Of a stretch of 64,000 nt of DNA, positions 15,052-57,251 are shown in pieces. The translations under genes were made by a program, and so were the position numbers. Origin of the DNA: an uncultured Gammaproteobacteria bacterium. Lineage in GTDB: Bacteria; Patescibacteriota; Patescibacteriia; 2-01-FULL-39-33. Positions within the stretch are counted from its first letter, which is position 1; each line of letters begins with the position of its first letter. The stretch spans positions 3,892-67,891 of the forward strand of contig CAYVUR010000001.1 of assembly GCA_964455185.1 (NCBI GenBank). Reading direction: 5' to 3'. The notes beneath the pieces were generated by a model. It searched no databases and was not told the DNA's origin. It saw only the letters and a list, made by a program, of their open reading frames with translations.

Positions 15052-15106
15052 ATTTTTATAAATTAATGCGGAAATCCGCTTTATTATTTATTTTAATTTT
15101 TTATAA

Positions 15107-15839: not shown

Positions 15840-15869
15840 AATAAATATAGTAATTAAATAACTTAAATA

Positions 15870-15896: not shown

Positions 15897-15920
15897 ATTT
15901 ATTTAATAATTTTGTTGCAA

Positions 15921-16277: not shown

Positions 16278-16304
16278 ATACGATTTAGTATTTATTTATA
16301 AACT

Positions 16305-16499: not shown

Positions 16500-16510
16500 A
16501 TCATTTATAT

Positions 16511-17071: not shown

Positions 17072-17083
17072 TTTATTTAAATG

Positions 17084-17472: not shown

Positions 17473-17534
17473 TTCTTTTGTAAATAAGAAAAAAAAGATT
17501 AGATTAGCAGAGGAAAAGAGGATGTTTGGGAAAA

Positions 17535-37354: not shown

Positions 37355-37386
37355 TTTTTGGCCGCTTAATTAATTTATGGTATAAT
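37355..37386 (+). promoter_or_regulatory. Candidate extended -10 promoter (TGgTATAAT) upstream of the secreted-protein gene pair
   Basis: TGG at 37378-37380 immediately before TATAAT 37381-37386. The -35 is weak. Confidence 0.35.
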
Positions 37387-37412: not shown

Positions 37413-38321
37413 ATGGAAGAACAAAAAACAACAAATGATAACAATCTTTATAATGATAACTGGTCAAATCAAGCCTTTTTTATTGAACAAAAAAGATTGC
37501 TCCGTAAAGAAAAAATTAATTCAATAATAATTATTATAGTCGGCTTGAGTGCTTTGTTTTTTGGTTTATTTGGAATGTTAGCAAATATTTCTAATCCTTT
37601 TGCTGATATTTTAAAAATTGGCCAAGCTCAGTTAAAAGAAGAAGCAGAAAAGGAAAAAATGCAATTATTAGCATTACAAACAACCGATATTGATGGTGAT
37701 GGTTTAGTTGATTATTTAGAACTTAATAAATATGGTACCAATCCTTATTTAAAGGATAGTGATGGTGATGGAATTGATGATAGTGAGGAAATATCAAGAG
37801 GATTGGACCCTAATTGTCCTCAAGGACAACAATGTCTTAATACAAATTTTATTAATAATGTTAATAATAATAGTAGTTCTTCGGAAAATATTCCTACTTT
37901 AGTTACGGAAATTCCTTTAGAAAACGGCACTGTTGCTATTACTCCAGATTTTTTAAGACAAGTACTTATTGAAAGTGGTTTTGATAAAGAAATGCTGGCT
38001 GAAGTGCCGGATTCGGAAATTATGGCGTTGTTTCAAGAATATGTCAAAACTAATCCTGAAATAGCTAGTAAATATTTTAACACATCCGAAGGAGAACAAG
38101 TAAAAACTTCTTTGCCAGAGCCTAATGCTTCTAATGTTAATCTTTCTTCATTAGGAGTAACAAGTTTAGAAGATTTAAAAAATCTTTCAGGTAGTCAAAT
38201 TAGAACTCTAATGATACAATCTGGCGCTCCAGAAGATTTACTTAAAACAGTTTCTGATGATCAATTAAAAGAATTATTTTTGAAAAAAATAGAAGAAAAA
38301 ATTAATTCAAATAGCAATTAA
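37413..38321 (+). CDS. Secreted/membrane-anchored protein with thrombospondin-type-3/dockerin-like Ca-binding Asp repeats
   Basis: N-terminal TM IIIIIVGLSALFFGLFGMLANI, then DIDGDGLVDYLELNKYGTNPYLKDSDGDGIDDSEEI (DxDxDG repeats). It is immediately upstream of the giant protein. Confidence 0.5.
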   Translation: MEEQKTTNDNNLYNDNWSNQAFFIEQKRLLRKEKINSIIIIIVGLSALFFGLFGMLANISNPFADILKIGQAQLKEEAEKEKMQLLALQTTDIDGDGLVDYLELNKYGTNPYLKDSDGDGIDDSEEISRGLDPNCPQGQQCLNTNFINNVNNNSSSSENIPTLVTEIPLENGTVAITPDFLRQVLIESGFDKEMLAEVPDSEIMALFQEYVKTNPEIASKYFNTSEGEQVKTSLPEPNASNVNLSSLGVTSLEDLKNLSGSQIRTLMIQSGAPEDLLKTVSDDQLKELFLKKIEEKINSNSN

Positions 38322-38327
38322 TAGTTT

Positions 38328-41300
38328 ATGAATAATAAACTCAAGATATATTTTTTTGTTGTAGTGTCATTGTTTATGTTTTTGGCGTCCACAACTCGTG
38401 CAGAGGCGCAAGTCAATGAGATTTACATGGAGGGTAATAGTGTTCTCTGGACTGGTGATAATTTTTCTTTAAACGTGACTCCTTGTGTTGGTGATCAATA
38501 TATAGAAGGAACCGCTTTTACTAAAAATCAAGCTGATTGTATTGAAAAACTTATTCAAAACCTTGATAAGAATACACAAAAAACAATTCAAGCTTACATG
38601 AAAAAACGTTTACGTGAAGAGTGGTGGGATCAAATGAAAACTAAGCTTAAAGAAGCAATGGCTGGAGCATTTAAAAAGTCATTAGAAAATATAGCACGTC
38701 AAATTGGTAGAGATACTGCTGTTTGGGTTGCTTCTGGCGGTCGTGGCCAAAAGCCATTGTTTATTACTGAAGGTTGGGGTGCTTATATGAAAAATATTGC
38801 TGATGTAGCTTTAGGAGATTTTATTGACCAAATAGGACAGAGTTTTGGTGTTGATTTATGCGAACCAGATTTTAATATTAAATTAGCTATTATTCTTGGA
38901 ATAGATGATAGGCAAACGAGAAGAGTTAGATGTAGTTTTTCTAAAATTATTCAAAATTGGGAAAGTGCTATTTCTAACTTTAATTTTTCTGTAGAATATC
39001 GCGCTGCATTAAGACCAGGTGAAAATGATATTTCAGTAGCTTTAATATTGGCTGACAAAAAACATAATTATATTGCTGGAATTGTGGAAGCAGCGGCTAA
39101 AGAGGCAGAAACTCAAGGTCTTTGGGCTAATATTAAAGATATTGCAGGCAAAATTCTTACTCCCGGTAGTATGATTCATGATAAATTTAAAAGTGATATT
39201 CATGATACTTCTAAATTAGGCTGGGAAACATTTACTGATACTATTTGGGATTTAATAGGTTCATTTTTAGATACTTTAGTGGGACAATTAGCTCTTAATC
39301 TTAAAAATGGATTTTTTTCTTCCAGTCCTGTTAAAAGTGATGATAATTCAAATCTTCCTGATTTAAGTTCTTTATTTAATCCTTGGTCTTCTCCAGTAGT
39401 AGCAGGAATTAAAGGTGCTGAAGGTAAATTTAATTATCTTAAAACTTCAACCATTAAAGTTGGCGGTCAATATGATTTGCTTAATAAACTTACTGCTTGT
39501 CAAGATCCTAATAATCCGGGACCAATGGGTTGTGTGTTAGATGTTAATTTAGCTTCTGCTATTAGACAAAAAACTTTAGTTAAAGATTTACCAGAAGAAA
39601 TTTTAAATCGACCCTTTGTTCCTTTAGCTAATAAAGTTGAAAATCCTAATGAGTATTTTAGTTTACGCGGCGTAACAATTTTAAGAAAATATCGTATTGT
39701 TCCGGTTGGTTGGGAATATGCGGCTAATTTAATTTCTCAGTTAGCAGCAAAAAATCCAAATTTCAAAGCCCCGACTCTTAAACAAATAATGAACGAATTT
39801 AATAATACTAACAGTGATTACTTTGGTTTAATTGATCCTTTTTGGGTATTGAAAGCCCCAGATATGTTCTGTCGTCGCGAAGGGTATGGACCGCAAAATT
39901 CTTTTTCTGGAGATCAAAATGGAGCAATATTTAGAGATAATTATTGTGCTGACGAACAACAATGTATTAAAGAAAACGATGATGGTTCTTGTGCTGCTTA
40001 TGGTTATTGTACAGAAGAACGTCGTGTTTGGAATTTTGGTAAATCTTGCGAGCCTAGATATAATACTTGCAATACTTATGTTAATCGTTTGGGACAAACC
40101 AATTATTGGTTAACTAATACTTTGGATTTCAGAGATTGCGATCAATCAACAGTTGGTTGTCGTTGGTTTAGTATAGAATATAATCCAGTTTCGAAATATT
40201 GGGTTGGAGCATATGAAAGTAATTTTTATACAGTTAATAACGAAACTACAGAGCAACAAATAACTCTTTCTGATGATAGTGGTTGGTTAGTAAGAGAAAA
40301 TCAATATGTTAGTAATAATAAACAATTAATAATGGCTTCTCCTTGCACTGAGGTTTTATGCAAGGATCCAGCAATGAATGGTAAATGTAATTTTGTTAAT
40401 AGGGCTTGTAAATTTAACACTGGTCTTTCTTGTAGTATACCTAGTGGAGGCATCAATTGTCGTTTACCTATTTGTGATAGCCAAACTGATGCTTTTGCTT
40501 CGGGAAATGGAGGATTTGAAGAACAGGAAGGTATTTATACTGATAATGCTAAAAAATGGAGTGATGAACTTTCCTTTATTACTCTAAATAATAGAGCTTA
40601 TAGAGAAATTAATGGCGGTAAATCAGGAGCTGGTTTACGAGTTTTAGCTAATGGCTCACCATCAGATATTTTATTATTATCAGATTCTTTTAGTGTAAAT
40701 CCCGGATCGTCTTACCATTTAAAATTTGACCTGCGAGGTTCTGTGGGAAATCAGGGAAAAGTTTTTGTATTTGTTTATGGTGGAGATAAAAGAATTAATT
40801 CTAATAATTTATCTGATATTAAAATTCTTGGTTCTATAGAAATAAATGCAGGTTATATAAGTAATAATTGGACATCTTTTAGAAGTTCTGAATTTCAAGT
40901 ACAAGAGTTTTCTACAGCTACAATAGCAATTATGGCGCCACAAGGAACTTTTGCTGATATTAGATTTGATAACTTTTCTTTAAATGAAGTTAGTAGTAAA
41001 TGTTTTGAAAATTCGGTTACAGTTTTTTCTTCAATAAAGCAAGAAGATAGGGAAAATATTAAAGATATTTATTTTGATCGAGATGCAGAATCTTGTTCAC
41101 CGGATTCTGCTGGATGTAGTCAATTTTTACGCTTGAAGGCTGGGATTGGTACTAATTTAGTTTATGATGGAGGTTTTGAATATGGTGATTTTGATTGGAA
41201 TAGTTATTGGGGGGGTAGTAAATTAAGTCCGATAGCAGAAATTAAAGATGGTAAAGCAAAATTAAGATATTCAACTGCATCTTATAGTACATATAAACCT

Positions 41301-44300
41301 ATAAATGTAGAACCAAATGATTATTATACAGTTTCTTTTGATGCCGCTCAAACATCAGATACTAATCATCATGAAATAAAATTTGAGATGGCTTTTGTTA
41401 GTGATATAAATTATGCTGGAAAATATCATTATGAAGTTAAAGATACTAATTGTAGCCAAACTGGAGATAACACAATTACTTTAATTTTTACTCCAGAATC
41501 TACTAATATGAAGCGTCAATCTTGTTGGTTTAAGGTACCTAGTGGAGCTAAGATATTACTATTTAAACCTTTTGCTTCATCTGAAACAGCTGAAATTTAT
41601 TTTGATAATTTAAAGATAGAGAAAGTTAATTATCCTTCTCTTACTCCAACTGCTTATACTCCTTATAATTTAGAAGATATTCAAAATCAACAAGTTACTT
41701 ATTTAAGAAAGGCTCCTGATTATTTCAATTGTTATTATTATACAGCAGAAGGAGTTAAGCGTTGGCCTATAACACCAAGTGAATTAAATTCAGTATTGGC
41801 CAATCGTAGTTTAGCTTGTTCGCAGTTTGCGGGAGTTTGTGCGCCATATGAAGTAGGGTGCGAATTATATAAACCACTTAATGGTGATCCTACTGTGCCG
41901 GGTGTTGCTAATGATATTGATGTTTGTCCAGCTGAATGCGCTGGTTATCAAGTTTATAAACAAGAAGTCACTAGATTTGTAAATGATAAATATCGTCAAT
42001 TTATAACTGACAATAAAATTAAATATTGTTCGGCTTCTTATGCTGGTTGTGATGAATTTACTAATCTAGATGAATTAGGCAGAGGAGCGGAAGCTAAAGA
42101 ATATTATTCAGCTATTCGCGCTTGTCAAAAACCAGACATTGATGATGGCGCTTTTTATACTTGGGAAGGAAGCGATGTTACAGGTTATCAGCTTAAAGCT
42201 TATAATTTAAAAAAATCTACTAGTACAGATCCCGACCCCAATGGAATCGGTGGAATTGCTCCTTGTACCAATCTTTTTTATGACAATCAAGGTAAACCTA
42301 AATGTAATGATCCTAGTACATGGCCTACTTCTTCCGAGGAACTTGAAAAGGCTGGTTTCTGTACTGTTAACGATTTAGTTACTAACGCTGATTGTCGTCA
42401 ATTTTATGATGTTGAAGGTAATGTTCATTATAGATTATTATCTCGTACTATTTCAGTATCTAATAATTGTCATCCTTATCGTCGTACTATGACACAAAAT
42501 TCTACGGCAGAAACTGAAGAAGATTGTAAAAGTCATAGTGGTTGGTGGAATAGTAATAACGAATGTATTTACATGGCAATTCCAGGAGAAGGAATGAAAT
42601 GTCCGGCCTCAGCTAAAGGTTGTCGCGCTTATACGGGAAATAAAGGTAATAATGTTCGTAATATAATAGAAGTTGCTAATTTTGGTTTGCAGTCTTCAAC
42701 TACTGGAAGTTGGGTAGGAGCAGACGGTACGTCTAATGGATTATTCGTGTCTTCCGAATCAACCTTTCCCGGTGGCAATTCTTTGATGAATCGAGGTACC
42801 ACAGTTATTAAGCATCCAGTAAAGATAAAGAAAGGTAAAACTTATATTTTAAGTTTCTGGGCTAAAGGCAGTGACAATTTTAGTATGGATTCGATAAAGT
42901 TTACTGGCGCTGGTACAGATACTTCTAAATATTTTGCCGTTAAACAAATTCGAGATGATAATTTGCTTTCTAATCGTCCTAACTTTAAACAAGATTGGAA
43001 TTTATATCAATTAGGGCCGGTTTTTGTTGATTGGGAGCCATCAGATAATGAATATTTAGAATTTAATTTACCAACTGGAGCAGGAATTACTGCTTATAAC
43101 ATTTATTTAGATAATGTAATTCTAAAAGAAATTGTTAATAATGTTTATGCTATTGAGAATTCTTGGTATACTCCTGTTTCTTGTGATAATAAATTAGATG
43201 ATCCTGACGGATCAAAGAGTATAACTACTGGAAGTTGTCAAGATTCAGCTTCAGGTCGTTGTTCAATTGGAGAAATGTTGGGTTGTACTGGTTATACTAA
43301 TAGAGCTAATCAAACTGTTTATTTAAAATCTTTTGCTTCATTGTGTCGTTCTGAAGCAGCGGGTTGTGAAGCTTTAATTGATACTAAAAATAATAATACT
43401 TCTTTAGCTAAGAGTTATCATGTAGGTGATAATTCACAAGTTAATGTTTCCGCTGATGAACAAGTTTATTTAGTAAATAGTCCACAATTTTCATGTCCTG
43501 CTTCTGATAAAGGTTGTACTCCATATGGATTGCCAATTATTGATCAGCAAGATAATGTTATAAGTTATCAAAGTGTTTTTATTAAGAATCAACCGGATAA
43601 ATACGAAATTGATCTTTGTTATGCTAAAAATCTTTGGTGTGAAGAATACTCTGCTAATGGAGGAGCAAAATATTTCAAAGACCCACACAACAAAATTTGT
43701 GTTTATGGTTCCACTAGAACCTCTACTTCTGCTATTTGGTATAAAATTGGCACTAATGGTGATCCTTGTGATGTAACATTTAATCAAACTTATGGTACTG
43801 GTTATGGTAGTTTAGAAAAGAAATTACAACCAGTAGGAGTAGTTTCGGGAGCTACTTATTCAAGTAGTGGAGAACCGGTTTATACGGGTTGGGCAGGAGC
43901 TTGTTCTCAGGATCAATCTGGTTGTACAGAATTTGTTGATCCACTTACAGAGATGTATAAGGAGGAGCTAGGAAAACTTAATTCCGATAATTCCGTTTCT
44001 TATTTACTCAAAGCAAATACTTTATATTCTATTTCTAATGATAGTTTTTATAAAATAAATATAAATTCAGATAATTGTGAATTTATTCCTCAAGACATTA
44101 CTTATTCTCGTCCAGGAGATACTAGTAGTGGCTATCTTTATTATGCTAAACCTAATTCAGATGATAAGTATTGTAATGTTACTATTTCATCATCTGATAA
44201 TAAAATTAAAGTAGCTAAAGCGGGTGTTTATTATAAGATAGCTAATTCAGTTGATAAATCAAGTTGTAATGGTTTAGTTGATTTTGGTACAGGCTGTGTA

Positions 44301-47300
44301 TTATTCAATGACCGTAGTGGAATTGATTATTCTACTACTACCATGTTTGGTAGAAATAAGTATCTCAATTTTGATGCTAATTATACTTATTTTATTCAAG
44401 GATATCCTTTTTCTTCTCAAAAAGTAGGACCAAAAACCGCTCAAGAAGCATTAAATAGTGGTAGCACACAAAATAGTAATAATACAGATATTATTTTACA
44501 AGTTAAACCAGATAGAACTTGTTCTAATTGGCTTGCTTGTACTTCTTATATTAAAGGCGATGGCAATTCTAGTAATGAGAAGTTTGGTGAGAAAGATTAT
44601 TGTTTAAGTGTTAATGCTTGCGATGAATTAAGCGAAGATAATCAATGTAGTCATTTAGTTTCCACTAACAAAGAAATTATTGACCTTACAAGTACAACAA
44701 CGAGATTATCTTATTTAAATAAAACAGGTTATTCTGTTCCCGGACTTTATCCTGTTGATCAAATGAAATATGAGGGCCAAGGTGCTAATGTTGGTAATGG
44801 TAATTTTGAAGTAAAACTTAATAGTGGCAAACCATTAAGTTGGGTTAATTGGTCACAGAATATAGCTTGGGATCCATCAATGTTTAGTGTTGTTTATGAT
44901 CCTAAAAATGCTCCAGAAGGAAGTAATTATTTAAGGATTAATTTTAAATCAACAGCAAAGTCAGAGATAATAGATGTAATTTCTGGACAAGATTATTATT
45001 TATCAGCTTGGATAAATACTGAATCTTTAAAATCTTCTTCTTCACCATTAAAAGAAAGAGCTGAAATAGTAGTAATGAATGCAGAGAAAGATGAAGAAAT
45101 AAATAGAGTTATGGTTTCTGCTGGATTGCCTTGGGCTCGAGTTACTCGTAAATTTACTGCTAATGCTAAATCAATTTATTTACTTTTAAGAAATTCTCCA
45201 GATGGTCCCCCATTTAGTACTAGTAATACTGGTCAACCAGTAGGTTATTCTCTTTTTGATGATATACAAATTACTCCTGTACTTAATGATAATGGAGATG
45301 GTTTAATGCTTCCTAAAACTTGTCGTATCTATCCATCGGCAGATGCTCCAGCTTGTAAATATAGTTCTGGTAATACTAATTATTATGGTTGGTATGGCTA
45401 TTGTTTAACTCCCGATCCTAATCGTCGTAGCGATTGTTTACAATGGTTTCCTGTTGATAAAATTAAAGGTGAATTTAGTAGTGACTACGCTTTAGGTTAT
45501 GATAATCGAGCGCCTTTGTATTATTGTATAGATTGGGACATTGTCTCTTTTAATATTAATGATTTAGGAGTAATTGGAAATATTGGAGAAGACGTTAAAG
45601 CAAAATATAGACAAAAAGTAAGTGCAATAATAACTGATAATAGAAAAGTAACACCGATTGCTTTTAATATTGATCCTGAATATGCTGGAATGTTTCGTTA
45701 TCCTTATATTTATAGATTTATTTTTGTAGGAGCATTTGGTGGACTTCAAAGAGATAATAATTTTAAACTTTTACCAATACTCACTTTTATGTATCCAAAG
45801 TGTGCGGTAGGATTTTTTGGATATCTGCCAATTTTTCATGGTAGTGATTGTAAAGATATTTTTAAATCACATTCAATTTTTAGTAGTAGCACAGAAGAAG
45901 AAATTAAAAACGAAGTTTGGATAAAAGATATTTTTGAAAGTTGTTTAGCTCCTGAGTTTAAGAAAGGTGGAAATGAAGGTTTTTGGATGGATAAAATGTG
46001 TGGAGATGGATTGGAAAATGGAGAGTATTGGCATGGTAAACAAATTGGTAAAAGTAGTAATCAAACATATAAAGGAACATATAAAGGCTCTTTATATTTT
46101 TCTTCTTCTCTTCCTCTTTCTTCTCCTTCTTCTTCAAGCACTGATTTAATAGAATTTACATCTAATAATTCTAAGACTGAAATTGCTGATTTTGATGGTA
46201 GTATAGATGGATATATGGATGATTATACATATAAAAATGATGGTAAAAGAATTGATTATTATCAATGTCTTAATAGAGAAAAAAAAGTTTGGGATTGGGA
46301 CAATAATGATTGTTCAGTAGAAGTATATGATTTTTGTTATTATAAAAATACTTTTTGTGAACTAGATAATCCAAATAATTATGAAGGCGAGAGTAGTTGT
46401 AGAGAATTTTGTTTTGGTACTCTTGATAGTATTGATGACGAAATAGAAAGTTGTATTAAAGAAAAAGTTCAACAAGCCAAAGCAGACAGAGGAGATTGCA
46501 ATTTTGCCGGCTTAAATATAAGCCAATGGATTAGATGTGTAGTTAATAAATTAGTAAACATAATTTCAAGTATATGGCTCAGTGTATCAAATATTGCTTG
46601 GAACGACACTGAAGATGTTTGGGGTGGTTTTGGAGCTTTTGGTTTTGTTATAGAAGGTATAGATATTAAACCATTAGTATTTCCCACTACTTTTTCTGGG
46701 GCTTTGAATGCTCCTAATATAATATTCGCTATAGAATTAGTAGCTAATGCTATTAAAGCAATTGGAGGCCAAGCTACAGAAAATATATTTATTGGAGTAG
46801 GTGCTTCAGGAGTTAAAATTATAACTGATCAAGATTCAAAGTATGCCAGTTCTTTGACTGATCCCGATCCTAATGTTTCTGGAAATGTTTTGGGTTATGC
46901 TTGGTTTTTAAATACATCAGAATTAAAAGGTGCTGGATTAGTTGGTCATTTTGAAGGATATATGAATATTCCTTATTGTAAAAAATTTGTTAAAGTTGTA
47001 ACAGCTTCAGGACAGAATAAAGCTTATTATAGTAAAGTGGGATTAGGTTCTAATTATAGTTATACTGTTAACGCTCAATCTTTTGGACCAAATCCAGCTT
47101 CAACTGCGACTTTTACTTATAATATGGATTATATGCCTTTTGGAGCTATTGTGCCGCCGTCATCTGGTAATATAGATGAACCAATAACTTGGGATAGTAA
47201 AACACTTTCTAGTATTGATCAGGGAAATATTAATTTACCAGGTGTAAATGTTTCTGGATTACAATTAATACAACCTACAGTTATAGGAGTTAATTATTCA

Positions 47301-48194
47301 GCAACTAAACAACCTTTATTTTTTGAAACGCCGGTATTAAGTTATGGTAATCCATATCAAGCTAGAGCTGGTGGAAGCGTTATAGAAAATAGTAAAGCTA
47401 ATTTTTTTAATAATAGTTTTAAAAGGATAGCGGTATTTTTAAATACTACAACAACACTTCAACAACTTTTTGCTAAAAGTTATGGTATTTTTATTTGGCA
47501 TTGGGATGAAATTAATATTTTTAATCCGAATTTAATATTAAAAGAATGGTTATTTTTTACTAATTCAAATGACAATACTAATTGTGTTCAAGATAATGGA
47601 AATAAGATTTGTACTCCTGTAAATGGTGTAAATGGTTCAGGGGGAAGTTATAAAGAAGAATTAGCAAGCCTTGATAATTGGGATAATGTAAGTGCAAAAG
47701 GTTTAGGATCAATAATTGATAATATTAAACTTGAAATAATTAGTAAATATGAAACTATTTCTTTAGCTAAATTAAGCTTTAATGTTACAATACCAGTTGA
47801 TCAATTACCAATCAAATCTTATACCATTGCTTGGGGCGATGGAACAGTTGATACTTTTTCAGGTGCTTCTCTTAATGATAAGCCAAACTCGTCCAGTACT
47901 TTTACGGTTTATCATACTTATGATTTCAATAAACTTAAGGATATTTCTATTTCTGGCTCCAATTTTAATTTATCAATGCCCTGTTGTGTAAAGAGTGGAT
48001 CATATGAGTGTACTGAGCAGTTGTCTATTGTGCCAAATGCTCCTGTTTCATCTGCATGTACCAACGCTACCTGTACAGCTACCATCTATATTTCGGTTAG
48101 AGATAATTGGGATAAAGTTAATTATTGTAATATTACTACAACCACTCAAGGAATAAATTATAATTATGCAACTGTAAGTATAAGTTCAAATTAA
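38328..48194 (+). CDS. Giant (3288 aa) secreted Cys-rich multi-domain surface protein with CBM4/9-like jelly-roll modules and a C-terminal PKD-like domain
   Basis: Signal peptide MNNKLKIYFFVVVSLFMFLASTTRAEAQ. At least four galactose-binding-like modules (GGFEEQEG.., YDGGFEYGDFDWNSYWGG.., LQSSTTGSWVGADGTSNG.., GNFEVKLNSGKPLSWVNW..). At least 8 recurrences of a Cys hairpin C-x2-3-[SA]-x-G-C-x2-[FY]. A PKD-like IAWGDGTVDTF..VYHTY motif near the C-terminus. Confidence 0.7.
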   Translation: MNNKLKIYFFVVVSLFMFLASTTRAEAQVNEIYMEGNSVLWTGDNFSLNVTPCVGDQYIEGTAFTKNQADCIEKLIQNLDKNTQKTIQAYMKKRLREEWWDQMKTKLKEAMAGAFKKSLENIARQIGRDTAVWVASGGRGQKPLFITEGWGAYMKNIADVALGDFIDQIGQSFGVDLCEPDFNIKLAIILGIDDRQTRRVRCSFSKIIQNWESAISNFNFSVEYRAALRPGENDISVALILADKKHNYIAGIVEAAAKEAETQGLWANIKDIAGKILTPGSMIHDKFKSDIHDTSKLGWETFTDTIWDLIGSFLDTLVGQLALNLKNGFFSSSPVKSDDNSNLPDLSSLFNPWSSPVVAGIKGAEGKFNYLKTSTIKVGGQYDLLNKLTACQDPNNPGPMGCVLDVNLASAIRQKTLVKDLPEEILNRPFVPLANKVENPNEYFSLRGVTILRKYRIVPVGWEYAANLISQLAAKNPNFKAPTLKQIMNEFNNTNSDYFGLIDPFWVLKAPDMFCRREGYGPQNSFSGDQNGAIFRDNYCADEQQCIKENDDGSCAAYGYCTEERRVWNFGKSCEPRYNTCNTYVNRLGQTNYWLTNTLDFRDCDQSTVGCRWFSIEYNPVSKYWVGAYESNFYTVNNETTEQQITLSDDSGWLVRENQYVSNNKQLIMASPCTEVLCKDPAMNGKCNFVNRACKFNTGLSCSIPSGGINCRLPICDSQTDAFASGNGGFEEQEGIYTDNAKKWSDELSFITLNNRAYREINGGKSGAGLRVLANGSPSDILLLSDSFSVNPGSSYHLKFDLRGSVGNQGKVFVFVYGGDKRINSNNLSDIKILGSIEINAGYISNNWTSFRSSEFQVQEFSTATIAIMAPQGTFADIRFDNFSLNEVSSKCFENSVTVFSSIKQEDRENIKDIYFDRDAESCSPDSAGCSQFLRLKAGIGTNLVYDGGFEYGDFDWNSYWGGSKLSPIAEIKDGKAKLRYSTASYSTYKPINVEPNDYYTVSFDAAQTSDTNHHEIKFEMAFVSDINYAGKYHYEVKDTNCSQTGDNTITLIFTPESTNMKRQSCWFKVPSGAKILLFKPFASSETAEIYFDNLKIEKVNYPSLTPTAYTPYNLEDIQNQQVTYLRKAPDYFNCYYYTAEGVKRWPITPSELNSVLANRSLACSQFAGVCAPYEVGCELYKPLNGDPTVPGVANDIDVCPAECAGYQVYKQEVTRFVNDKYRQFITDNKIKYCSASYAGCDEFTNLDELGRGAEAKEYYSAIRACQKPDIDDGAFYTWEGSDVTGYQLKAYNLKKSTSTDPDPNGIGGIAPCTNLFYDNQGKPKCNDPSTWPTSSEELEKAGFCTVNDLVTNADCRQFYDVEGNVHYRLLSRTISVSNNCHPYRRTMTQNSTAETEEDCKSHSGWWNSNNECIYMAIPGEGMKCPASAKGCRAYTGNKGNNVRNIIEVANFGLQSSTTGSWVGADGTSNGLFVSSESTFPGGNSLMNRGTTVIKHPVKIKKGKTYILSFWAKGSDNFSMDSIKFTGAGTDTSKYFAVKQIRDDNLLSNRPNFKQDWNLYQLGPVFVDWEPSDNEYLEFNLPTGAGITAYNIYLDNVILKEIVNNVYAIENSWYTPVSCDNKLDDPDGSKSITTGSCQDSASGRCSIGEMLGCTGYTNRANQTVYLKSFASLCRSEAAGCEALIDTKNNNTSLAKSYHVGDNSQVNVSADEQVYLVNSPQFSCPASDKGCTPYGLPIIDQQDNVISYQSVFIKNQPDKYEIDLCYAKNLWCEEYSANGGAKYFKDPHNKICVYGSTRTSTSAIWYKIGTNGDPCDVTFNQTYGTGYGSLEKKLQPVGVVSGATYSSSGEPVYTGWAGACSQDQSGCTEFVDPLTEMYKEELGKLNSDNSVSYLLKANTLYSISNDSFYKININSDNCEFIPQDITYSRPGDTSSGYLYYAKPNSDDKYCNVTISSSDNKIKVAKAGVYYKIANSVDKSSCNGLVDFGTGCVLFNDRSGIDYSTTTMFGRNKYLNFDANYTYFIQGYPFSSQKVGPKTAQEALNSGSTQNSNNTDIILQVKPDRTCSNWLACTSYIKGDGNSSNEKFGEKDYCLSVNACDELSEDNQCSHLVSTNKEIIDLTSTTTRLSYLNKTGYSVPGLYPVDQMKYEGQGANVGNGNFEVKLNSGKPLSWVNWSQNIAWDPSMFSVVYDPKNAPEGSNYLRINFKSTAKSEIIDVISGQDYYLSAWINTESLKSSSSPLKERAEIVVMNAEKDEEINRVMVSAGLPWARVTRKFTANAKSIYLLLRNSPDGPPFSTSNTGQPVGYSLFDDIQITPVLNDNGDGLMLPKTCRIYPSADAPACKYSSGNTNYYGWYGYCLTPDPNRRSDCLQWFPVDKIKGEFSSDYALGYDNRAPLYYCIDWDIVSFNINDLGVIGNIGEDVKAKYRQKVSAIITDNRKVTPIAFNIDPEYAGMFRYPYIYRFIFVGAFGGLQRDNNFKLLPILTFMYPKCAVGFFGYLPIFHGSDCKDIFKSHSIFSSSTEEEIKNEVWIKDIFESCLAPEFKKGGNEGFWMDKMCGDGLENGEYWHGKQIGKSSNQTYKGTYKGSLYFSSSLPLSSPSSSSTDLIEFTSNNSKTEIADFDGSIDGYMDDYTYKNDGKRIDYYQCLNREKKVWDWDNNDCSVEVYDFCYYKNTFCELDNPNNYEGESSCREFCFGTLDSIDDEIESCIKEKVQQAKADRGDCNFAGLNISQWIRCVVNKLVNIISSIWLSVSNIAWNDTEDVWGGFGAFGFVIEGIDIKPLVFPTTFSGALNAPNIIFAIELVANAIKAIGGQATENIFIGVGASGVKIITDQDSKYASSLTDPDPNVSGNVLGYAWFLNTSELKGAGLVGHFEGYMNIPYCKKFVKVVTASGQNKAYYSKVGLGSNYSYTVNAQSFGPNPASTATFTYNMDYMPFGAIVPPSSGNIDEPITWDSKTLSSIDQGNINLPGVNVSGLQLIQPTVIGVNYSATKQPLFFETPVLSYGNPYQARAGGSVIENSKANFFNNSFKRIAVFLNTTTTLQQLFAKSYGIFIWHWDEINIFNPNLILKEWLFFTNSNDNTNCVQDNGNKICTPVNGVNGSGGSYKEELASLDNWDNVSAKGLGSIIDNIKLEIISKYETISLAKLSFNVTIPVDQLPIKSYTIAWGDGTVDTFSGASLNDKPNSSSTFTVYHTYDFNKLKDISISGSNFNLSMPCCVKSGSYECTEQLSIVPNAPVSSACTNATCTATIYISVRDNWDKVNYCNITTTTQGINYNYATVSISSN

Positions 48195-48216
48195 ACATTT
48201 TAAATTTTTTCACTTT

Positions 48217-51200: not shown

Positions 51201-51537
51201 GATATTTAATAACGCTAAACAAAGATATAATGAAGCTAGAGGAAATCTTGAATCTTTAAGAAAAGAAATAACAGATTTAAGTAATGAGGCTGATGATGCG
51301 AAAAAAGCAGGAGATTCAATGACATATCAAAAGTTACAAAGCAAGATAAATAGATTGAAAAGTCAGGAAGCTACTTTACAAGCAAATTTATCTAAAGCGG
51401 AAAATGAATATAATCAGGCGTTAAATAATTATGCTTCTAATTTAGATGATAACAAGAATTGGAAAGAGACTGATTTGCAAAAACGAGAAAAAGAAATTAT
51501 TGGTAAAAAAAGTAAAAATAATAATAAAGAAGATTAA
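48217..51537 (+). CDS. VirB6/TrbL-like polytopic membrane protein with a ~600-aa helical cytoplasmic C-terminal extension
   Basis: The N-terminal ~500 aa hold about 8 TM helices interrupted by a large loop, the VirB6/TrbL topology. The C-terminal half is K/E-rich and predicted coiled-coil. It precedes VirB3/VirB4-like genes. Confidence 0.45.
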   Translation: MFSRRKNKILINIVATIIIVAMCFGVARPVRAGWLNNLGAFGGFVGTVAAGAAIGSLFAISAPVSVPVALIGGTILTAVTEAGVMYVISSRKVQESANSIVTPIVMNAALTDTSIGTYVAGTNLPESTGGVLETSAKAIERGVKKEDVQAAIGGMNYSYQQTEALKASNQQIKDDPKNSTIGDIIARMFAWLLYYIAVGLGWVLMLISFVMLKIAVYNNFLREDAIHLGWQIIRDICNNFFIILLLITAISTMLRQGDFKDWRSMLPKILVAAVIINFSLLMCGIFIDVSQIFTLTFASPLNSITGYNVILAAMGIPSSMQLSNLSSEVGTTGIENIDLIAALIYATIITFVTIIVITAITVLLAYRIIMLWFLVILSPLPILLSLLKRGASYVNLWWEEFFKYLIVGPAVMFFLYLSFMFMGKMNNTGTAGNTSNVLNINTQSLPTGATIGSGSNVTLTSGKDTVSLSNAASPNGVINFLIVISLMAGSLLMAQKIGTKGSKFAGQSLTWLQNQGKRWSGFNLAKNLAKSAPRTVGTAIDDKLGLRQKLYGTAFAAGGKYIPFVGQDLGKRIGVLEEGTQRRINAKYSDLAKGYQIDKMNEEQLRKLASKGGSAGVVATQALMKKGLFRDDDELNRANNIDIIKKAREALKGTDLGNTFDENLKKYNPSLAFSTIYDGKLDKLRSDLKLGKIDIDKLMAGMTPEQINKLKADLGGGNGAVAKFILSNSSDIGKTLKGMNKQSRELVTQEIDHKTFAKRINPDGTIAEYDDETRRKYLSSKPADIMKIFDMNDKTELEKARKQFSKNRETILREMDPEGMTSEFIKNFGDLFNFKELEKNFSDRSSEHKTAATRALQEHLDASLKEVNFEQLAQNLARAIASGDKVAIEKAKKEQADMDELVKKNLLAQGNLSPSVIKASGSDDALERILGNLNGDDASKINWGNLSDQEKNIISQHINPNALKLLATRGDNNELIRGVRDNIRTRAKIDNDNEQIFNNAKQRYNEARGNLESLRKEITDLSNEADDAKKAGDSMTYQKLQSKINRLKSQEATLQANLSKAENEYNQALNNYASNLDDNKNWKETDLQKREKEIIGKKSKNNNKED

Positions 51538-51544
51538 TTAATTC

Positions 51545-52963
51545 ATGGCGGAAAATAATCAAAATAAAATTCAAGATTTAGAAGAAATTAAGCAATCTAA
51601 TCCCTGGATTGTTGATTTCGGTTTATCTGATGCAGAAATAGTTGCCATTGTTAATCTTATTGGTCAAGTTATCTGGGGCGATATTGATTTGCAGGAATAT
51701 TCAGAAATGATTAAAAAAGTAATTCTTAAAGACCCTCAAATAAAGCGTCAAATTGAAATTGCCATCGCTAAAAATAGGCTTATGGCGTTTAAGGACGAGA
51801 TTGATGGAGTTGAGGATTATATTCGTTCATTAGGTATAACGGTTTTAGAAGTCAGACCGCCTCAAAAAGAAGAGAGTAGTCTTGAAGGTTTACCAGAAAT
51901 CAAATCTGATACTGCCAGATCTTCATCCGGCATGGCCTTTTCTATGTCTGATGAAAAAGAAATTCAATCAATAAAAGTTCCTGATTATGAAGAAAAAATT
52001 GATTGGGGTAGCCAAATAAAGTCTATAATTTCTCAATTTGGTTTTCGCGAATCAGATCCTGTTATTGTTAAACGTTTAGAAAATATTATTATAGCTAGAC
52101 TTAAAGATATTCGTGATGATTTAGAAACTTTTGATATTTTAACTCGATCACGTAAAATTGGAGGTATGGAATTTAGTGATACTCAAGCTGAGCAATTACT
52201 TTCTTTAATAAGAAATCAAGATTCTTTTAAGGTGGCAAAAATAGAAAATGATTTAACTTTAGCAAGTAAGCCTAAATCATCGGTAATCTCACCTAAAATA
52301 GAAATAGAAGATGGTTTACCTGTAGTTCGCTTACCGGATGATTTAATAGTTAAACCGGAATTATTAAATGAAAAAGAATTAGAAGAAGAATTAATTTTTC
52401 AAAAATCAAAAGAAACAGCTTCTAATATTGAAATCAATAATAATAAGGAGAAAGAATCTAACTTAGAAATTAAAAAAGAAGAAATTAATAAATCTAGTGA
52501 TAATAAAATTGTCACTAATTCTTTTACAACAATTACTCCTAAACCTGAGCCTTTTTTAGCATCTAAAAAAATACCATCAATTACTAATATTAAAAATTCT
52601 TCAAAACCACATCTTGATGGTATTAAAATAACTAAAACAATAATGGGGCCAATTGATGAATTAGAAGCAATGACCTTAATAGAATTTCGTCGTCTTTCTT
52701 CTGACCCTTTTGAAGCAATTAAAAAAATTCAAGAAGATATTGAGCTTATTAGTAAAGAAGGATTTGATCGGCGTAATGAAGCCATTGCCGCTTGGCATCG
52801 TAGTGAAGTTAGTAAGTTTTATCGTCTTTTAGGGCAACTTGCTATGTCAGAAGGAAAAAGTGTATCTTCAGTAATAGAAGAAAGATTAATTTCTGGCAAA
52901 CCAACTTTATCAATGAATGAATTTGAAGCGATCACAGAACTTAATAAATTAATTAGATTTTAA
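51545..52963 (+). CDS. Hypothetical soluble protein within the T4SS-like cluster
   Basis: 472 aa with no TM helices and no recognisable NTP-binding motif. It is translationally coupled to its neighbours. Confidence 0.4.
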   Translation: MAENNQNKIQDLEEIKQSNPWIVDFGLSDAEIVAIVNLIGQVIWGDIDLQEYSEMIKKVILKDPQIKRQIEIAIAKNRLMAFKDEIDGVEDYIRSLGITVLEVRPPQKEESSLEGLPEIKSDTARSSSGMAFSMSDEKEIQSIKVPDYEEKIDWGSQIKSIISQFGFRESDPVIVKRLENIIIARLKDIRDDLETFDILTRSRKIGGMEFSDTQAEQLLSLIRNQDSFKVAKIENDLTLASKPKSSVISPKIEIEDGLPVVRLPDDLIVKPELLNEKELEEELIFQKSKETASNIEINNNKEKESNLEIKKEEINKSSDNKIVTNSFTTITPKPEPFLASKKIPSITNIKNSSKPHLDGIKITKTIMGPIDELEAMTLIEFRRLSSDPFEAIKKIQEDIELISKEGFDRRNEAIAAWHRSEVSKFYRLLGQLAMSEGKSVSSVIEERLISGKPTLSMNEFEAITELNKLIRF

Positions 52964-52966
52964 ATT

Positions 52967-53416
52967 ATGCAACAAGTAGTTGTACCACAATTTTTAGATG
53001 TAGAAGATAAAATTATTGGGCCAATTACAGTACGTCAATTTATTGAATTAGTAATTGGAGCTATTTTTATCGCTATACTTTATAAATTGCTTTATTTACC
53101 TTATTTTTTAGTTGCTGGTTTTATCGTTTTTGGTATTACCATGATTATAGCTTTTGCTAAAATAAATGGGCAGGTTTTTCATATTTTTATGCTTAATTTT
53201 TTTCAGACAATGATAAATCCTAAATTAAAAATTTGGCGAAAAAGAGTAACTCTTAAAGAAATAAAAGCCGATTTATCTAAACCTAAAGAAGAAAATTTAC
53301 AATTAGTAAAAATGTCTCATCGACCAATAAGTTCTTCGCGACTTTCAGAAATCGCCTTAATTATAGATACGGGAGGAGTTTATCAAGGAGAAGAAAATAA
53401 TAATTTAATAAAATAG
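52967..53416 (+). CDS. PrgI/VirB3-like small membrane protein
   Basis: PQFLDVEDKIIGPITVRQFIELVIGAIFIAILYKL then a second TM, the PrgI-family pattern. It is immediately upstream of VirB4. Confidence 0.5.
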   Translation: MQQVVVPQFLDVEDKIIGPITVRQFIELVIGAIFIAILYKLLYLPYFLVAGFIVFGITMIIAFAKINGQVFHIFMLNFFQTMINPKLKIWRKRVTLKEIKADLSKPKEENLQLVKMSHRPISSSRLSEIALIIDTGGVYQGEENNNLIK

Positions 53417-53419
53417 TTT

Positions 53420-54100: not shown

Positions 54101-54104
54101 TTTT

Positions 54105-56027
54105 ATGTTTAATCCTCAAGAAATAGAAAAAAATAATCAGTCACAACAAACTTTTGGTTATACTCCTCCACCACCTCTTAAAGGTGCTCAGAGATTAGCT
54201 GTAGAAACTAAAGAACTTGCTTTATCCAAAGAAGCTTTGGAAGAAGAAAAAATTTATCGCCGAGGAGTAGTTTCGGTTAGAGATTTAATAGCTCCCTCAG
54301 CCTTAGAAGTTAATCCTAATTATATTAAGTTGGGGGAACTTTTTGTTCGTACTATTTTTGTTTATGAATATCCTAGATATATTGCCGTAGGTTGGTTTGC
54401 TCCCATAATTAATATGGATATTACCGCAGATATTGCTATGTTTTTTTATCCAGTTAAGGCCGCGGTGATACTTAAACAGCTTAAGAAAAAGGTAGGTGTT
54501 TTAGAAGCAGGAATTATTTCTGCCGCTGAAAAAGGTGCGCCACGTGATCCTTTAGCAGAAACAGCGCTTAGAGACATGGAAAAATTACGTGATGACTTAA
54601 CTCAAGGAATAGAACATTTTTTTCAGATTTCTCTTTATGTAACTATTTATGCTAAGACTCTTGAAGAATTAGATAGAACTTCTGAAAGAATAGAAAATTT
54701 TTTTGGTTCAACGCTTATTTATTCAAGACGTGTTTTTTATCAAGCGGAACAAGGATTTAATTCTACTTTACCGATTGCATTAGATGAAATGCAAGTTTTT
54801 ATTAATATGAATTCTTCTCCAGCGGCGTCAGCTTTTCCTTTTGTTTCATCAGATCTTACTTCTGATCATGGAATTCTTTATGGGATTAATCGTCATAATA
54901 ATAGTTTAATATTATTTGATAGATTTTCTTTACAAAATGCTAACGCAGTGGTTTTTGCTACTTCTGGAGCTGGTAAATCTTATGCAATAAAACTTGAAGT
55001 GTTACGTAGTTTAATGATGGGAACAGAAGTGATAATTATTGATCCAGAACGTGAATATAATCATCTTTGTCAAGCTGTAGGAGGTACTTATATTGATATT
55101 TCACTTAATTCAGAAGGTAAGATTAATCCTTTTGATTTACCGCGTGCTGTTGGTGAAGATGCTAAAGCCGGAGATATTATTAGAAACGCAGTCATTACGG
55201 TTAAAGGTTTAGTTAGATTAATGATTGGAAACGTTACTCCTGAAGAAGATTCAATTATTGATCGAGCGCTTTTAGAAACTTATGCTAAAAAAGATATAAC
55301 TCCTGATGCTGATTTACGTTACGTTGAACCGCCGATTATGCAAGATTTTCAAGATATACTAGAAGGCATGGAGGGCGGAGAAAATATTGTTTTACGTTTA
55401 AAAAAATATACCGAAGGGACTTTTGCTGGCTTACTTAATAATCCAACTAATGTTAAACTTGATAATCAATTAGTAGTATTTTCTGTTCGAGATTTAGAAG
55501 ATGAACTTAAACCGTTAGCTATTTATACTATCGTTAATTATATTTGGAATATAGTTAGAAGCGAACTTAAGAAAAGAATTTTAGTAGTTGATGAAGCTTG
55601 GTGGTTAATGCAACGAGAAGATTCAGCTAAATTTATTTTTGCTTTAGTTAAACGTTGCCGTAAATATTATTTAGGAGTTACCACAATTACCCAAGATGTT
55701 AATGATTTTCTTACTTCTTCTTATGGACAGGCGATAGTTAATAATTCTTCAATACAATTATTGTTAAAGCAGTCACCGGCTGCAATTGATTTAGTTAAAA
55801 AAACTTTTTTACTTACTGAAGGAGAAAAGTATTTATTATTAGAATGCGGTGTTGGTGAAGGAATTTTTTTTGCTGGAGCTAAACATGTAGCGATTAAAAT
55901 TGTTGCTTCTTATTCTGAAGATCAACTTATTACTTCTGATCCGCGCCAATTATTAGAAATAGAGCGAGCTAAAAAAGAATTTGCTGAAGCTATGATGCAA
56001 GAAGAAAATATGCCTAAAAAAGAATAA
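54105..56027 (+). CDS. VirB4/TrbE-family T4SS ATPase (middle and C-terminal ATPase domains)
   Basis: Walker A FATSGAGKSYAIKLE, Walker B ILVVDEAWWLM, and upstream VirB4-family blocks (YIKLGELFVRTIFVYEYPRYIAVGW). Confidence 0.8.
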   Translation: MFNPQEIEKNNQSQQTFGYTPPPPLKGAQRLAVETKELALSKEALEEEKIYRRGVVSVRDLIAPSALEVNPNYIKLGELFVRTIFVYEYPRYIAVGWFAPIINMDITADIAMFFYPVKAAVILKQLKKKVGVLEAGIISAAEKGAPRDPLAETALRDMEKLRDDLTQGIEHFFQISLYVTIYAKTLEELDRTSERIENFFGSTLIYSRRVFYQAEQGFNSTLPIALDEMQVFINMNSSPAASAFPFVSSDLTSDHGILYGINRHNNSLILFDRFSLQNANAVVFATSGAGKSYAIKLEVLRSLMMGTEVIIIDPEREYNHLCQAVGGTYIDISLNSEGKINPFDLPRAVGEDAKAGDIIRNAVITVKGLVRLMIGNVTPEEDSIIDRALLETYAKKDITPDADLRYVEPPIMQDFQDILEGMEGGENIVLRLKKYTEGTFAGLLNNPTNVKLDNQLVVFSVRDLEDELKPLAIYTIVNYIWNIVRSELKKRILVVDEAWWLMQREDSAKFIFALVKRCRKYYLGVTTITQDVNDFLTSSYGQAIVNNSSIQLLLKQSPAAIDLVKKTFLLTEGEKYLLLECGVGEGIFFAGAKHVAIKIVASYSEDQLITSDPRQLLEIERAKKEFAEAMMQEENMPKKE

Positions 56028-56040
56028 AATAAAATATTAT

Positions 56041-56625
56041 ATGTTTATGTTAGACAATAGACAAAAAATAATTATAAGTTTATTAATCAGCGTTGCTATA
56101 TTAATAGTAGCTTTTTTTCTGTGGTTATTATTTAAGCCTAAAGAAGCTCCAATAAATTTAGTACAAACTCCAACTTCAACCATTCAAATCGGACAATCAG
56201 TAGTTGAACCCGTTGTTTTAGAACCCGCTAATCCATCTAGAATAGAAAATGAAAAACAATATCCTTTAGGGTCTAAACAGGTTGCTATGATTTTCGCTGA
56301 AAGATATTCTAGTTATTCAACTGATGAACCAATCAAAAATATTCAAGATCTTCAATCTTTAACTACGTCAGAGTTTTATTCGGCGATTATTTCTGAAGCA
56401 AAAAATAGACAATTTCCTGATATTTTTTATGGTTATTCAGCTAAAGCTCTAGCAGCTAATCTTATAGAAGTTAGCCAAACAAAAGCCAAAATAGCAGTTA
56501 ATTTACAAATAGAACAAACTATAGGTGATGGACAAAATAGTAATATTTTATATCGCACTTTAAATGTTAATTTAATTAAATTGAGAGAAGAATGGAAAGT
56601 AAATGGAGCCTCTTGGCAACAATAA
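56041..56625 (+). CDS. Bitopic membrane protein (N-terminal TM + ~150-aa extracytoplasmic domain); possibly VirB8-like
   Basis: TM IIISLLISVAILIVAFFLWLLF. The size and topology fit VirB8-type T4SS subunits, but no motif-level support. Confidence 0.3.
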   Translation: MFMLDNRQKIIISLLISVAILIVAFFLWLLFKPKEAPINLVQTPTSTIQIGQSVVEPVVLEPANPSRIENEKQYPLGSKQVAMIFAERYSSYSTDEPIKNIQDLQSLTTSEFYSAIISEAKNRQFPDIFYGYSAKALAANLIEVSQTKAKIAVNLQIEQTIGDGQNSNILYRTLNVNLIKLREEWKVNGASWQQ

Positions 56626-57251
56626 GTAATTATTTAATTGATTTAATTTTTCCTAAAATTTGTGTTTCCTGTGGCCAGCCAAATGAAAATTTGTGTAATT
56701 ATTGTAAACAATCAGTTAACCCTGTTTTTGGGACTAAATCGGTTCCTAATATTGACCAATTAATTTTTATTTGGCGTTACGATAACCAAGTAGTAAAATC
56801 ATTAATTAAATCTTTGAAATACGATTTTATTACTAGTCTTGAAAATGATTTACGATTTCTTTTTAATCAGCAAAATTATATTGAAAAAATTAGAGATTTT
56901 TGTTCTTCTGGATATTTAATACCAATTCCTTTACATAAAAAACGTGAACTTTGGCGAGGTTTTAATCAGTCAGTAATAATAGCTCAAATTATTTCAGAAA
57001 TAACTTGTTTACCAGTAAAAGATAATTTAATTAAAAGAATAATATTTACTAAACAGCAAGCTCATTTAGAACTGAATGATAGATTATTAAATTTAAAAAA
57101 TGTTTTTTTAGCAACTAAATGCTCAACTATTGATAAGACAGCGATATTAATTGATGATGTTGTAACTACGGGAGCAACTTTATCAGCTGCCGCTCAAGAA
57201 CTTAAAAGAAAAGGATTTTTATATGTTAAAGCTTTAGTTCTCGCTGCTTAA
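56592..57251 (+). CDS. comFC: Competence protein ComFC (phosphoribosyltransferase-domain, ComF family)
   Basis: N-terminal 4-Cys zinc finger (CVSCGQPNENLCNYCKQ) and the PRTase PRPP-binding motif ILIDDVVTTGATL. Confidence 0.85.
   Translation: MESKWSLLATISNYLIDLIFPKICVSCGQPNENLCNYCKQSVNPVFGTKSVPNIDQLIFIWRYDNQVVKSLIKSLKYDFITSLENDLRFLFNQQNYIEKIRDFCSSGYLIPIPLHKKRELWRGFNQSVIIAQIISEITCLPVKDNLIKRIIFTKQQAHLELNDRLLNLKNVFLATKCSTIDKTAILIDDVVTTGATLSAAAQELKRKGFLYVKALVLAA

Follow-up and report, generated by a model that had tools for sequence, protein, structure and literature searches.

We analyzed a 64,000-nucleotide stretch of contig CAYVUR010000001.1 (assembly GCA_964455185.1; hereafter the window, whose forward-strand positions are used throughout) around one exceptionally long open reading frame (ORF). 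The ORF is genuine, and its 3,288-aa product, which we call the giant protein, is a member of a Patescibacteria-only family with a fixed single architecture, encoded at a chromosomal locus together with genes of a type IV secretion system (T4SS). It is not a fast-evolving repeat adhesin. An initial annotation made from the letters of the window had put forward a carbohydrate-binding adhesin, which is a plausible label; the main point added here is the conservation and synteny of the giant family throughout Patescibacteria. Rigid conservation, a single architecture and the link to a T4SS operon are suggestive of a host-contact subunit associated with the apparatus, and we regard it as an evenly balanced question whether the giant protein is the extracellular host-contact subunit of a chromosomal, monoderm-type (MPF-FATA-like) Patescibacteria T4SS.

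A Patescibacteria-specific family with a single architecture

We found 115 homologs of 1,876-3,989 aa, all but two of them longer than 2,300 aa. Every homolog that carries an organism name belongs to Patescibacteria (Buchanan-, Falkow-, Komeili- and Uhrbacteria and Parcubacteria), and almost all are annotated as hypothetical, apart from two entries named 'carbohydrate binding domain-containing protein' and one UniRef entry named 'MAM domain-containing'. A HMMER search, run exhaustively with the N-terminal domain (N-domain; aa 90-625) as query, retrieved 1,419 cluster representatives, and 853 of these scored E<1e-30. Among the 150 matches listed, the N-domain was N-terminal in all and mostly belonged to proteins of 2,000-3,900 aa; about 20 of these matches are shorter and are probably fragments. 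Scanning GTDB species representatives with a sequence pattern yielded 396 stretches that were confirmed.

The order of parts is constant (Table 1). Cys-rich core 1, carbohydrate-binding module (CBM) 3, core 2, CBM4 and a five-Cys cluster occur in essentially all homologs, CBM1 and CBM2 are optional, and the C-terminal region ending in a PKD-like module is found in about 45%. The slowest-evolving parts are the N-domain and the Cys cores; the fastest are CBM2, CBM4 and aa 2406-2750, the last of which retains 7% identity among mid-distance relatives.

A fixed-spacing cysteine motif within conserved Cys-rich cores

The initial annotation had listed at least eight copies of a recurring Cys motif, and all eight are present. 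The pattern C-x5-G-C occurs 8 times compared to 0.22 expected (500 shuffles, maximum 3), and two extra Cx6C copies lacking the Gly lie at aa 574 and 1764; the consensus is C-[SP]-x-x-x-x-G-C-x-x-[FY]. In an alignment of the query with the 115 homologs (116 sequences, homologs at 25-98% identity), the spacing was exactly six residues in 114-116 of 116 at all ten sites (aa 574, 604, 923, 1171, 1234, 1425, 1673, 1723, 1764 and 1859), so the irregular spacing that had been named as evidence against the motif was not observed. Some 56 cysteines reach a conservation of 89% or more, also across homologs of 25-40% identity.

The motifs had been taken for short connectors between modules, a description that does not hold: they are embedded in Cys-rich regions of 350-530 aa that are among the slowest-evolving of the protein. 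One unit of ~80 aa, a double hairpin with two motifs, is duplicated, with copies at aa ~1150-1236 and ~1644-1722 (hhalign 91%, 77 columns) that follow CBM2 and CBM3, respectively. A larger repeat of the type 'Cys-domain + CBM' was considered and is supported in part, as the duplication is limited to this unit. Two AlphaFold2 (AF2) models, spanning aa 28-2320 and each built on 28 sequences, place a short helical turn between both Cys of several motifs, followed by a strand; because confidence is below 50 here, the disulfide hairpin stays a prediction. We define C-x5-G-C as a new fixed-spacing motif whose cysteines would close disulfide loops.

The N-terminal region is conserved from aa ~100 in all homologs. 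The conserved N-domain (aa ~100-620) consists of predicted helices, a confidently modeled small alpha domain at aa 387-512 and a knot of nine cysteines. The helices of aa 28-386 have a predicted local distance difference test score (pLDDT) of 30-50, this region gave no family, PDB or fold match, and no helix of the N-domain exceeds 1.3 in Kyte-Doolittle hydrophobicity. Prediction of the N-terminal helices, the Cys knot and Cys core 2 was too poor for a meaningful fold search.

Four carbohydrate-binding-like modules

When profiles were derived from the alignment of the family, exactly four CBM-like modules emerged, spanning aa 723-889, 941-1102, 1451-1604 and 2134-2318. The four profiles find each other, with domain E-values mostly between 1e-5 and 1e-11 and weaker ones for CBM4, and pairwise hhalign probabilities of 91-98% indicate that the modules are mutually homologous. 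The whole protein scores 43.8 bits on Pfam CBM_4_9 (PF02018; cut-off 25.9) over 2 stretches. A 420-aa piece with CBM1 and most of CBM2 also exceeds the threshold (29.9 bits, best stretch in CBM2), a 420-aa piece with CBM3 stays below it (20.7 bits), and CBM4 alone has no Pfam match. The modules show the beta-sandwich jelly-roll fold of the CBM4/9/16/22 type, and Foldseek searches with both models returned jelly-roll matches alone. Together, these results agree with the four CBM4/9-type modules of the initial annotation, with one correction: its 'Y.LS.W' pattern is an internal strand, and the real module ends read Y/F-x-D-[DN]-[IVL]. The conserved residues of the modules (GxFE, W, Y.LSFW, Y.DN) look like core rather than cleft residues.

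Export and the C-terminus

A clean signal peptide had been claimed and is found: the strongest hydrophobic segment, and the sole strong one, is aa 5-23, followed by TTRAEA|Q, and 108 of the 116 family members have a comparable N-terminal segment. No member has a C-terminal transmembrane-like segment (0/116) or a sortase anchor LPxT[GAS] in its last 60 aa (0/116). With a leader segment but no other strong transmembrane segment, C-terminal transmembrane segment or LPxTG motif, the giant protein is probably secreted and unanchored.

Outside the CBMs, the whole protein and ten overlapping pieces gave no Pfam or NCBIfam match, and a whole-family profile against PDB sequences matched CBMs only. More than 2,000 residues outside the CBMs contained no catalytic domain that Pfam, NCBIfam, PDB profile or fold search could detect, and no sequence or fold relation to VirB2, VirB5, PrgA, PrgB, PrgC and the like was seen outside the CBMs.

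The hypervariable region is followed by a Gly-rich, moderately hydrophobic stretch, VWGGFGAFGFVIEG...ALNAPNIIFAIELVANAIKAIGG (46590-46820, aa ~2755-2830; Kyte-Doolittle 1.35-1.43), which is partly conserved and may be a membrane-active or interaction segment. For the PKD-like end proposed earlier, the agreement is at the level of the motif. The conserved C-terminal string is L.F..vD..QLPL..Y.IDWGDG...YH.Y...DNWG; WGDG...HxY is present in 66 of 116 members, and the query reads IAWGDG...YHTY...DNW, which corresponds to the PKD signature string WxFGDG...HxY. No PKD profile (PF00801 or PF18911) reached threshold with the whole protein, its pieces or the precomputed Pfam results of the 115 homologs. 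Nine C-terminal modules scanned alone gave PKD_4 once at E 0.084 (13.4 bits versus 27) and Big_9 once at E 0.012. Neither the family profile nor the C-terminal sequence, whose PDB matches were below threshold, identified a PKD chain in the PDB. An hhalign comparison with a verified PKD1 domain (1b4r) aligned 18 columns around WDFGDG at 11.6% probability, compared to at most 0.7% for shuffles.

A conserved cassette with T4SS genes

As the initial annotation had noted, the ORF stands between a gene for a Ca-binding protein and T4SS genes on one strand; the upstream gene encodes a TSP3-repeat protein and the downstream genes T4SS components. The genes are tightly packed, with gaps of 6, 22, 7, 3, 3, 4 and 13 bp from 37413 to 56625, the first of which separates the TSP3 gene from the giant ORF; the gene that comes next shares 34 bp with its predecessor. 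No terminator-like sites lie between the operon genes. Across the region, promoter-like sites do not exceed the number expected from shuffles, and the sole intergenic one with an extended -10 element is in the 119-bp gap ahead of the first gene.

Synteny was counted at 80 loci from species-representative genomes, with denominators of 62 for TSP3 and 49 for the VirB6-like gene. The TSP3 gene is directly upstream of the giant gene in 61 of 62 loci, and the VirB6-like gene is downstream in 45 of 49. The order KsgA-TSP3-giant-VirB6-like-x-PrgI-TrsD-VirB4, preceded by FemAB-MFS, recurs around homologs at 38%, 39%, 38%, 28% and 27% identity, and tblastn finds a counterpart of the 472-aa protein (x) at the same place in most loci that reach far enough. 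The giant gene is thus co-located and co-oriented with virB4, prgI and the VirB6-like gene as part of a Patescibacteria T4SS cluster as delimited by the surroundings of virB4 (PMC12102498), with the exceptions given below. The TSP3 gene is its most constant neighbor, exceeding the T4SS genes.

The VirB6-like protein has several hydrophobic helices (roughly seven) in its first ~500 aa; it matches the NCBIfam family of Mbov_0396 integrative and conjugative element (ICE) transmembrane proteins at E 3e-5, below the cut-off, and an ortholog weakly matches TrbL_3. The split VirB4 (53420-56027) agrees with the TrsD + VirB4 arrangement typical for Patescibacteria (PMC12102498). A VirB8-like role is possible for the 194-aa protein that follows. 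Exactly two Cys are found in 43 of 69 TSP3 orthologs, and the window copy reads CPQGQQC (Cx5C); a Cx6C motif common to the TSP3 and giant proteins was rejected, as none of the 69 orthologs has one. A VirB2-like pilin array in the operon was likewise rejected, since the named ORFs fill all the space.

The locus is chromosomal and lies among housekeeping genes. A mobile-element origin was rejected because plasmids yielded no match to the N-domain, housekeeping genes flank the locus and the same chromosomal context recurs in distant genomes. The window holds no relaxase or coupling protein, and FtsK is the only FtsK/VirD4-type ATPase found in it. The ComFC-like gene occupies the same position in three distant genomes (L001, 30918-31559; L085, 26915-27565; L086, 26946-27668). 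RecG follows it, and the window also holds DprA (30937-32034, minus strand), RecA (12600-13688) and SSB (14578-15051); this set of genes hints at a possible link between the T4SS and the uptake or processing of nucleic acids.

Several other observations were made. First, many third-party annotation (TPA) metagenome-assembled genomes with the cassette (L010, L013, L016-L018 and others) are titled 'uncultured Gammaproteobacteria bacterium'; on a Patescibacteria-specific cassette, this title is almost certainly a placeholder or mislabel. Second, a ParA/ParB pair lies at 25501-27160, ~10 kb upstream of the operon. Patescibacteria T4SS loci are often near the replication origin (PMC12102498); cumulative GC skew climbs monotonically over most of the window, so that no origin is evident inside it. 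Lastly, a 224-aa protein at 11910-12584 has an HTH_25 domain at its N-terminus and a Glucodextran_B-like domain at its C-terminus, an arrangement like that of RodZ.

Table 1. Features of the giant ORF and its operon, with window positions; residue numbers (aa) in the first column refer to the giant protein.
Feature	Position	Strand	Remarks
Promoter-like site TTGGCC-17-TATAAT, TG extended -10	37358..37386	+	119-bp AT-rich gap before operon; consensus match only
Bitopic membrane protein, 302 aa, TSP3 (Ca-binding) repeats	37413..38321	+	Pfam TSP3_bac E 4e-8; one transmembrane segment, its residues 38-56
Giant ORF	38328..48194	+	3,288 aa; 115 homologs found; window GC ~30%
Signal peptide, aa 1-27 (...TTRAEA|Q)	38328..38408	+	Predicted cleavage
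N-terminal region, aa 28-386	38409..39485	+	Long helices at low confidence; motif ASGGxGQKPLFITEGWG highly conserved
Small alpha domain, aa 387-512, ILRKYRIVPVGWE motif	39486..39863	+	AF2 pLDDT 73-88; near-invariant residues
Cys knot, aa 513-616	39864..40175	+	Nine invariant Cys including Cx6C at 574, 604; low AF2 confidence
CBM-like module 1, aa 723-889	40494..40994	+	In about 45% of homologs
Cx6C motif CSPDSAGC, aa 923-930	41094..41117	+	Between CBM1 and CBM2
CBM-like module 2, aa 941-1102	41148..41633	+	Best Pfam CBM_4_9 match; in about 70% of homologs
Cys-rich conserved core 1, aa 1103-1450	41634..42677	+	Cx6C at 1164, 1171, 1234, 1425; confident beta domain aa ~1259-1429
CBM-like module 3, aa 1451-1604	42678..43139	+	In all aligned homologs
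Cys-rich conserved core 2, aa 1605-2133	43140..44726	+	Cx6C at 1673, 1723, 1764, 1859; two Cx5C pairs at 2065, 2092; poor AF2
CBM-like module 4, aa 2134-2318	44727..45281	+	No Pfam match of its own
Conserved five-Cys cluster, aa 2319-2405	45282..45542	+	Conservation
Lineage-specific hypervariable region, aa 2406-2750	45543..46577	+	29% identity among relatives 59-67% identical overall
C-terminal region, aa 2751-3135	46578..47732	+	Conserved in about 45% of homologs; no known domain
C-terminal PKD-like/Ig-like module, aa 3136-3288	47733..48194	+	WGDG...YHTY...DNW motif conserved
VirB6-like polytopic protein, 1,106 aa	48217..51537	+	~600-aa hydrophilic C-terminal half
472-aa protein, no Pfam/NCBIfam family	51545..52963	+	Acidic, Cys-free; between VirB6-like and PrgI
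PrgI (VirB3-like)	52967..53416	+	Family match
TrsD / VirB4 N-terminal-like protein, 226 aa	53420..54100	+	Family match
VirB4 ATPase, 640 aa, CD1110 family	54105..56027	+	355.7 bits versus cut-off 325
194-aa protein, N-terminal transmembrane helix	56041..56625	+	Ortholog at same position in L001, L085, L086
ComFC-like protein (double zinc ribbon + phosphoribosyltransferase)	56592..57251	+	Overlaps previous gene by 34 bp

Proposed role and alternatives

If the giant protein is a host-contact subunit, it would be exported by the Sec pathway, with its signal peptide probably cleaved, and ~28 disulfides, including ten Cx6C-closed loops, would lock it into a long rigid scaffold; disulfide locking is suggested by the invariance and even number of the cysteines. 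The scaffold also finds support in the DsbA-like gene near one ortholog. Since the protein appears to have neither a covalent nor a transmembrane anchor, it could be retained at the cell by docking of the conserved N-domain on the TSP3 protein and/or the VirB6-like protein, partners that are suggested by synteny. The four jelly-rolls of the CBM4/16/22 type would bind glycans of the host envelope, while CBM1, CBM2, CBM4 and the hypervariable region (here aa ~2460-2760) may tune host specificity, as their evolutionary rates suggest. The T4SS channel would thereby be set against the host surface for macromolecule transfer.

Five points weigh against this role. First, the ortholog P0087 keeps KsgA-TSP3-giant followed by unrelated genes, and the VirB6-like gene was not found downstream in 4 of 49 loci, so that the linkage to T4SS genes is strong but not obligatory. 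Second, CBM-type folds are also found in enzymes, in toxins and in protein-protein recognition. Third, Pfam, NCBIfam, PDB profile and fold searches related the protein to no described T4SS subunit or adhesin. Fourth, AF2 models the N-terminal helices and most Cys-rich regions at low confidence, which leaves the hairpin geometry and the docking domain as predictions. Lastly, glycan binding and contact with T4SS proteins are predictions from sequence and synteny. The contig of P0087 (L087; giant gene at 10001-17788) has adenosine deaminase, NUDIX and other genes in place of the T4SS genes, and the DsbA/thioredoxin-like gene lies on it ~6 kb upstream of the giant gene (3282-4061, minus strand).

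The giant protein might instead be a structural part of the secretion conduit, a stalk and tip that replaces VirB5 and VirB2, with its N-terminal helices on the VirB6-like platform and its disulfide-locked body bridging the distance to the host cell; it would then be more than an accessory adhesin. In the Agrobacterium operon, virB6 is preceded by virB5, and in the R388 T4SS structure VirB5 rests on VirB6. The giant gene stands directly before the VirB6-like gene, with a 22-bp gap, long helices are predicted in its N-terminal region, the extreme conservation of the cores is unusual for adhesins, and the operon has no pilin array, whereas Saccharibacteria T4SS loci bear VirB2-like arrays (PMC12102498). 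We nevertheless consider a conduit part unlikely: searches by sequence and fold matched neither VirB5/TraC nor any pilin, the helical region is modeled at pLDDT 30-50, no known channel component resembles a four-CBM monomer of 3,288 aa, and the family can occur without adjacent T4SS genes.

Alternatively, the operon position could reflect co-regulation only, and the giant protein could be a secreted or wall-associated protein that binds or processes glycans in nutrient scavenging or envelope remodeling. CBM4/9/16/22 modules are typically appended to glycoside hydrolases, one ortholog is encoded away from T4SS genes, and essential glycan-binding surface proteins of Saccharibacteria are encoded outside the T4SS locus (PMC10633639). 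The lack of a detectable catalytic domain in the more than 2,000 residues outside the CBMs and the near-invariant synteny with the TSP3 and VirB6-like genes over deep divergence make this quite unlikely.

Top Foldseek matches include full-length Cry1, Cry8 and Vip3, one homolog has a faint Endotoxin_C match, and a helical N-terminal region followed by jelly-rolls would also suit a factor that perforates the host membrane as Cry/Vip3 toxins do, its N-terminal helices inserting after the jelly-rolls bind receptors. However, the Cry, Vip3, reelin and GH101 matches, although high-ranking, have a TM-score of ~0.1 and are explained by shared jelly-roll arrays, model 1 does not contain the helical region, and the N-domain offers no hydrophobic helix above the 1.3 Kyte-Doolittle level and a helical model of low confidence, so that we judge a toxin very unlikely. 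Most improbable is a general envelope or S-layer scaffold with no specific host-contact role, which would suit a large, Cys-abundant, secreted protein of single architecture in candidate phyla radiation (CPR) genomes that encode many large Cys-rich surface proteins (PMC4736985; PMC8080830), but leaves the operon partnership with T4SS genes unexplained and sits poorly with a hypervariable region and optional CBMs that suggest target-specific selection.

The host-contact role can be extended into a bolder proposal, which we offer as speculation that is unlikely to hold: in lineages of the Buchanan-, Falkow-, Uhr- and Komeilibacteria and Parcubacteria type, the ~3,000-aa disulfide-locked giant would form, jointly with the bitopic Ca-binding protein, an extracellular organelle that the essential CPR T4SS has so far lacked, replacing both pilus and adhesin. 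It would be docked on the VirB6-like protein via the N-terminal helices, with exchangeable CBM and hypervariable modules setting host range, and the ComFC-like gene, co-transcribed at the end of the operon, would point to nucleic-acid import from the host as the cargo.

Patescibacteria, which live attached to other cells, account for a large part of bacterial diversity. Their chromosomal T4SS is widespread and essential in the sole species tested, with a function that is not known. The giant protein and its TSP3 partner, found with T4SS genes in hundreds of lineages, are a concrete candidate for host recognition and docking. They offer separable parts (the CBMs, the hypervariable region and a putative N-terminal docking domain) and several domains with no structural relatives, and the family could serve as a marker for host-range prediction from metagenomes.

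Comparison with known systems

Literature searches found no description of the giant family. A 2025 survey of Patescibacteria T4SSs covers VirB4, TrsD, VirB3, VirB6, VirB8, VirB1 and VirB2-like arrays, reports that adhesins such as PrgB were not detected near CPR T4SSs, and does not mention the giant protein (PMC12102498). CBM folds, Cys-rich CPR exoproteins and adhesins in monoderm T4SS operons are already known kinds; the Cx6C scaffold of the family, its unmatched N-terminal and core domains, and the fixed TSP3-giant-VirB6 cassette appear undescribed.

Large Sec-exported surface proteins are also encoded with the monoderm MPF-FATA-type T4SS of pCF10-type operons, namely PrgB (aggregation substance) and related adhesins. 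Both a PrgB-type adhesin and the giant protein are presumed to bind polymers of the partner cell so that the channel engages. Unlike PrgB, the giant protein is 2.5x larger, Cys-rich and CBM-based, has no LPxTG motif (0/116) and shares no sequence or domain homology with it, and its locus is chromosomal and apparently non-conjugative. The pilus-tip adhesin VirB5/TraC is likewise an extracellular T4SS part with a helical domain, encoded beside virB6 and acting in target-cell contact, the role proposed for the giant protein; VirB5, however, has about 220 aa and neither CBMs nor disulfide scaffolds, and no sequence or fold similarity between the two was detected.

The jelly-roll fold is shared with multi-modular glycan-binding proteins that carry CBM4/9/16/22 modules (the CBMs of xylanases and laminarinases, the CBM16 of an S-layer-associated endoglucanase and Bacteroides SGBP-B) and with phage receptor-binding proteins. 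In contrast to those CBM proteins, the giant protein has no attached catalytic domain, and its modules are set in a conserved scaffold that is predicted to be rich in disulfides. Earlier papers mention giant or large Cys-rich surface proteins of CPR bacteria in general terms, with no link to a T4SS (PMC4736985; PMC8080830). Those of Peribacteria (PMC4736985) and Vampirococcus (PMC8080830) also have a signal peptide, thousands of residues, many cysteines and a proposed role in attachment. They are heterogeneous (integrin, FG-GAP, PKD, WD40 and others) with no conserved family defined, whereas the giant proteins form a single family with fixed neighbors.

A further comparable apparatus is that of Saccharibacteria, whose T4SS is essential and of unknown function (PMC10633639, PMC11665869, PMC12857230). 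In S. epibionticum (SEML1_0006-0019), the locus is also chromosomal and has the same core of VirB4, TrsD, PrgI and a VirB6-like protein; it includes an essential VirB2-like pilin array, where the operon described here has the TSP3 and giant pair instead.

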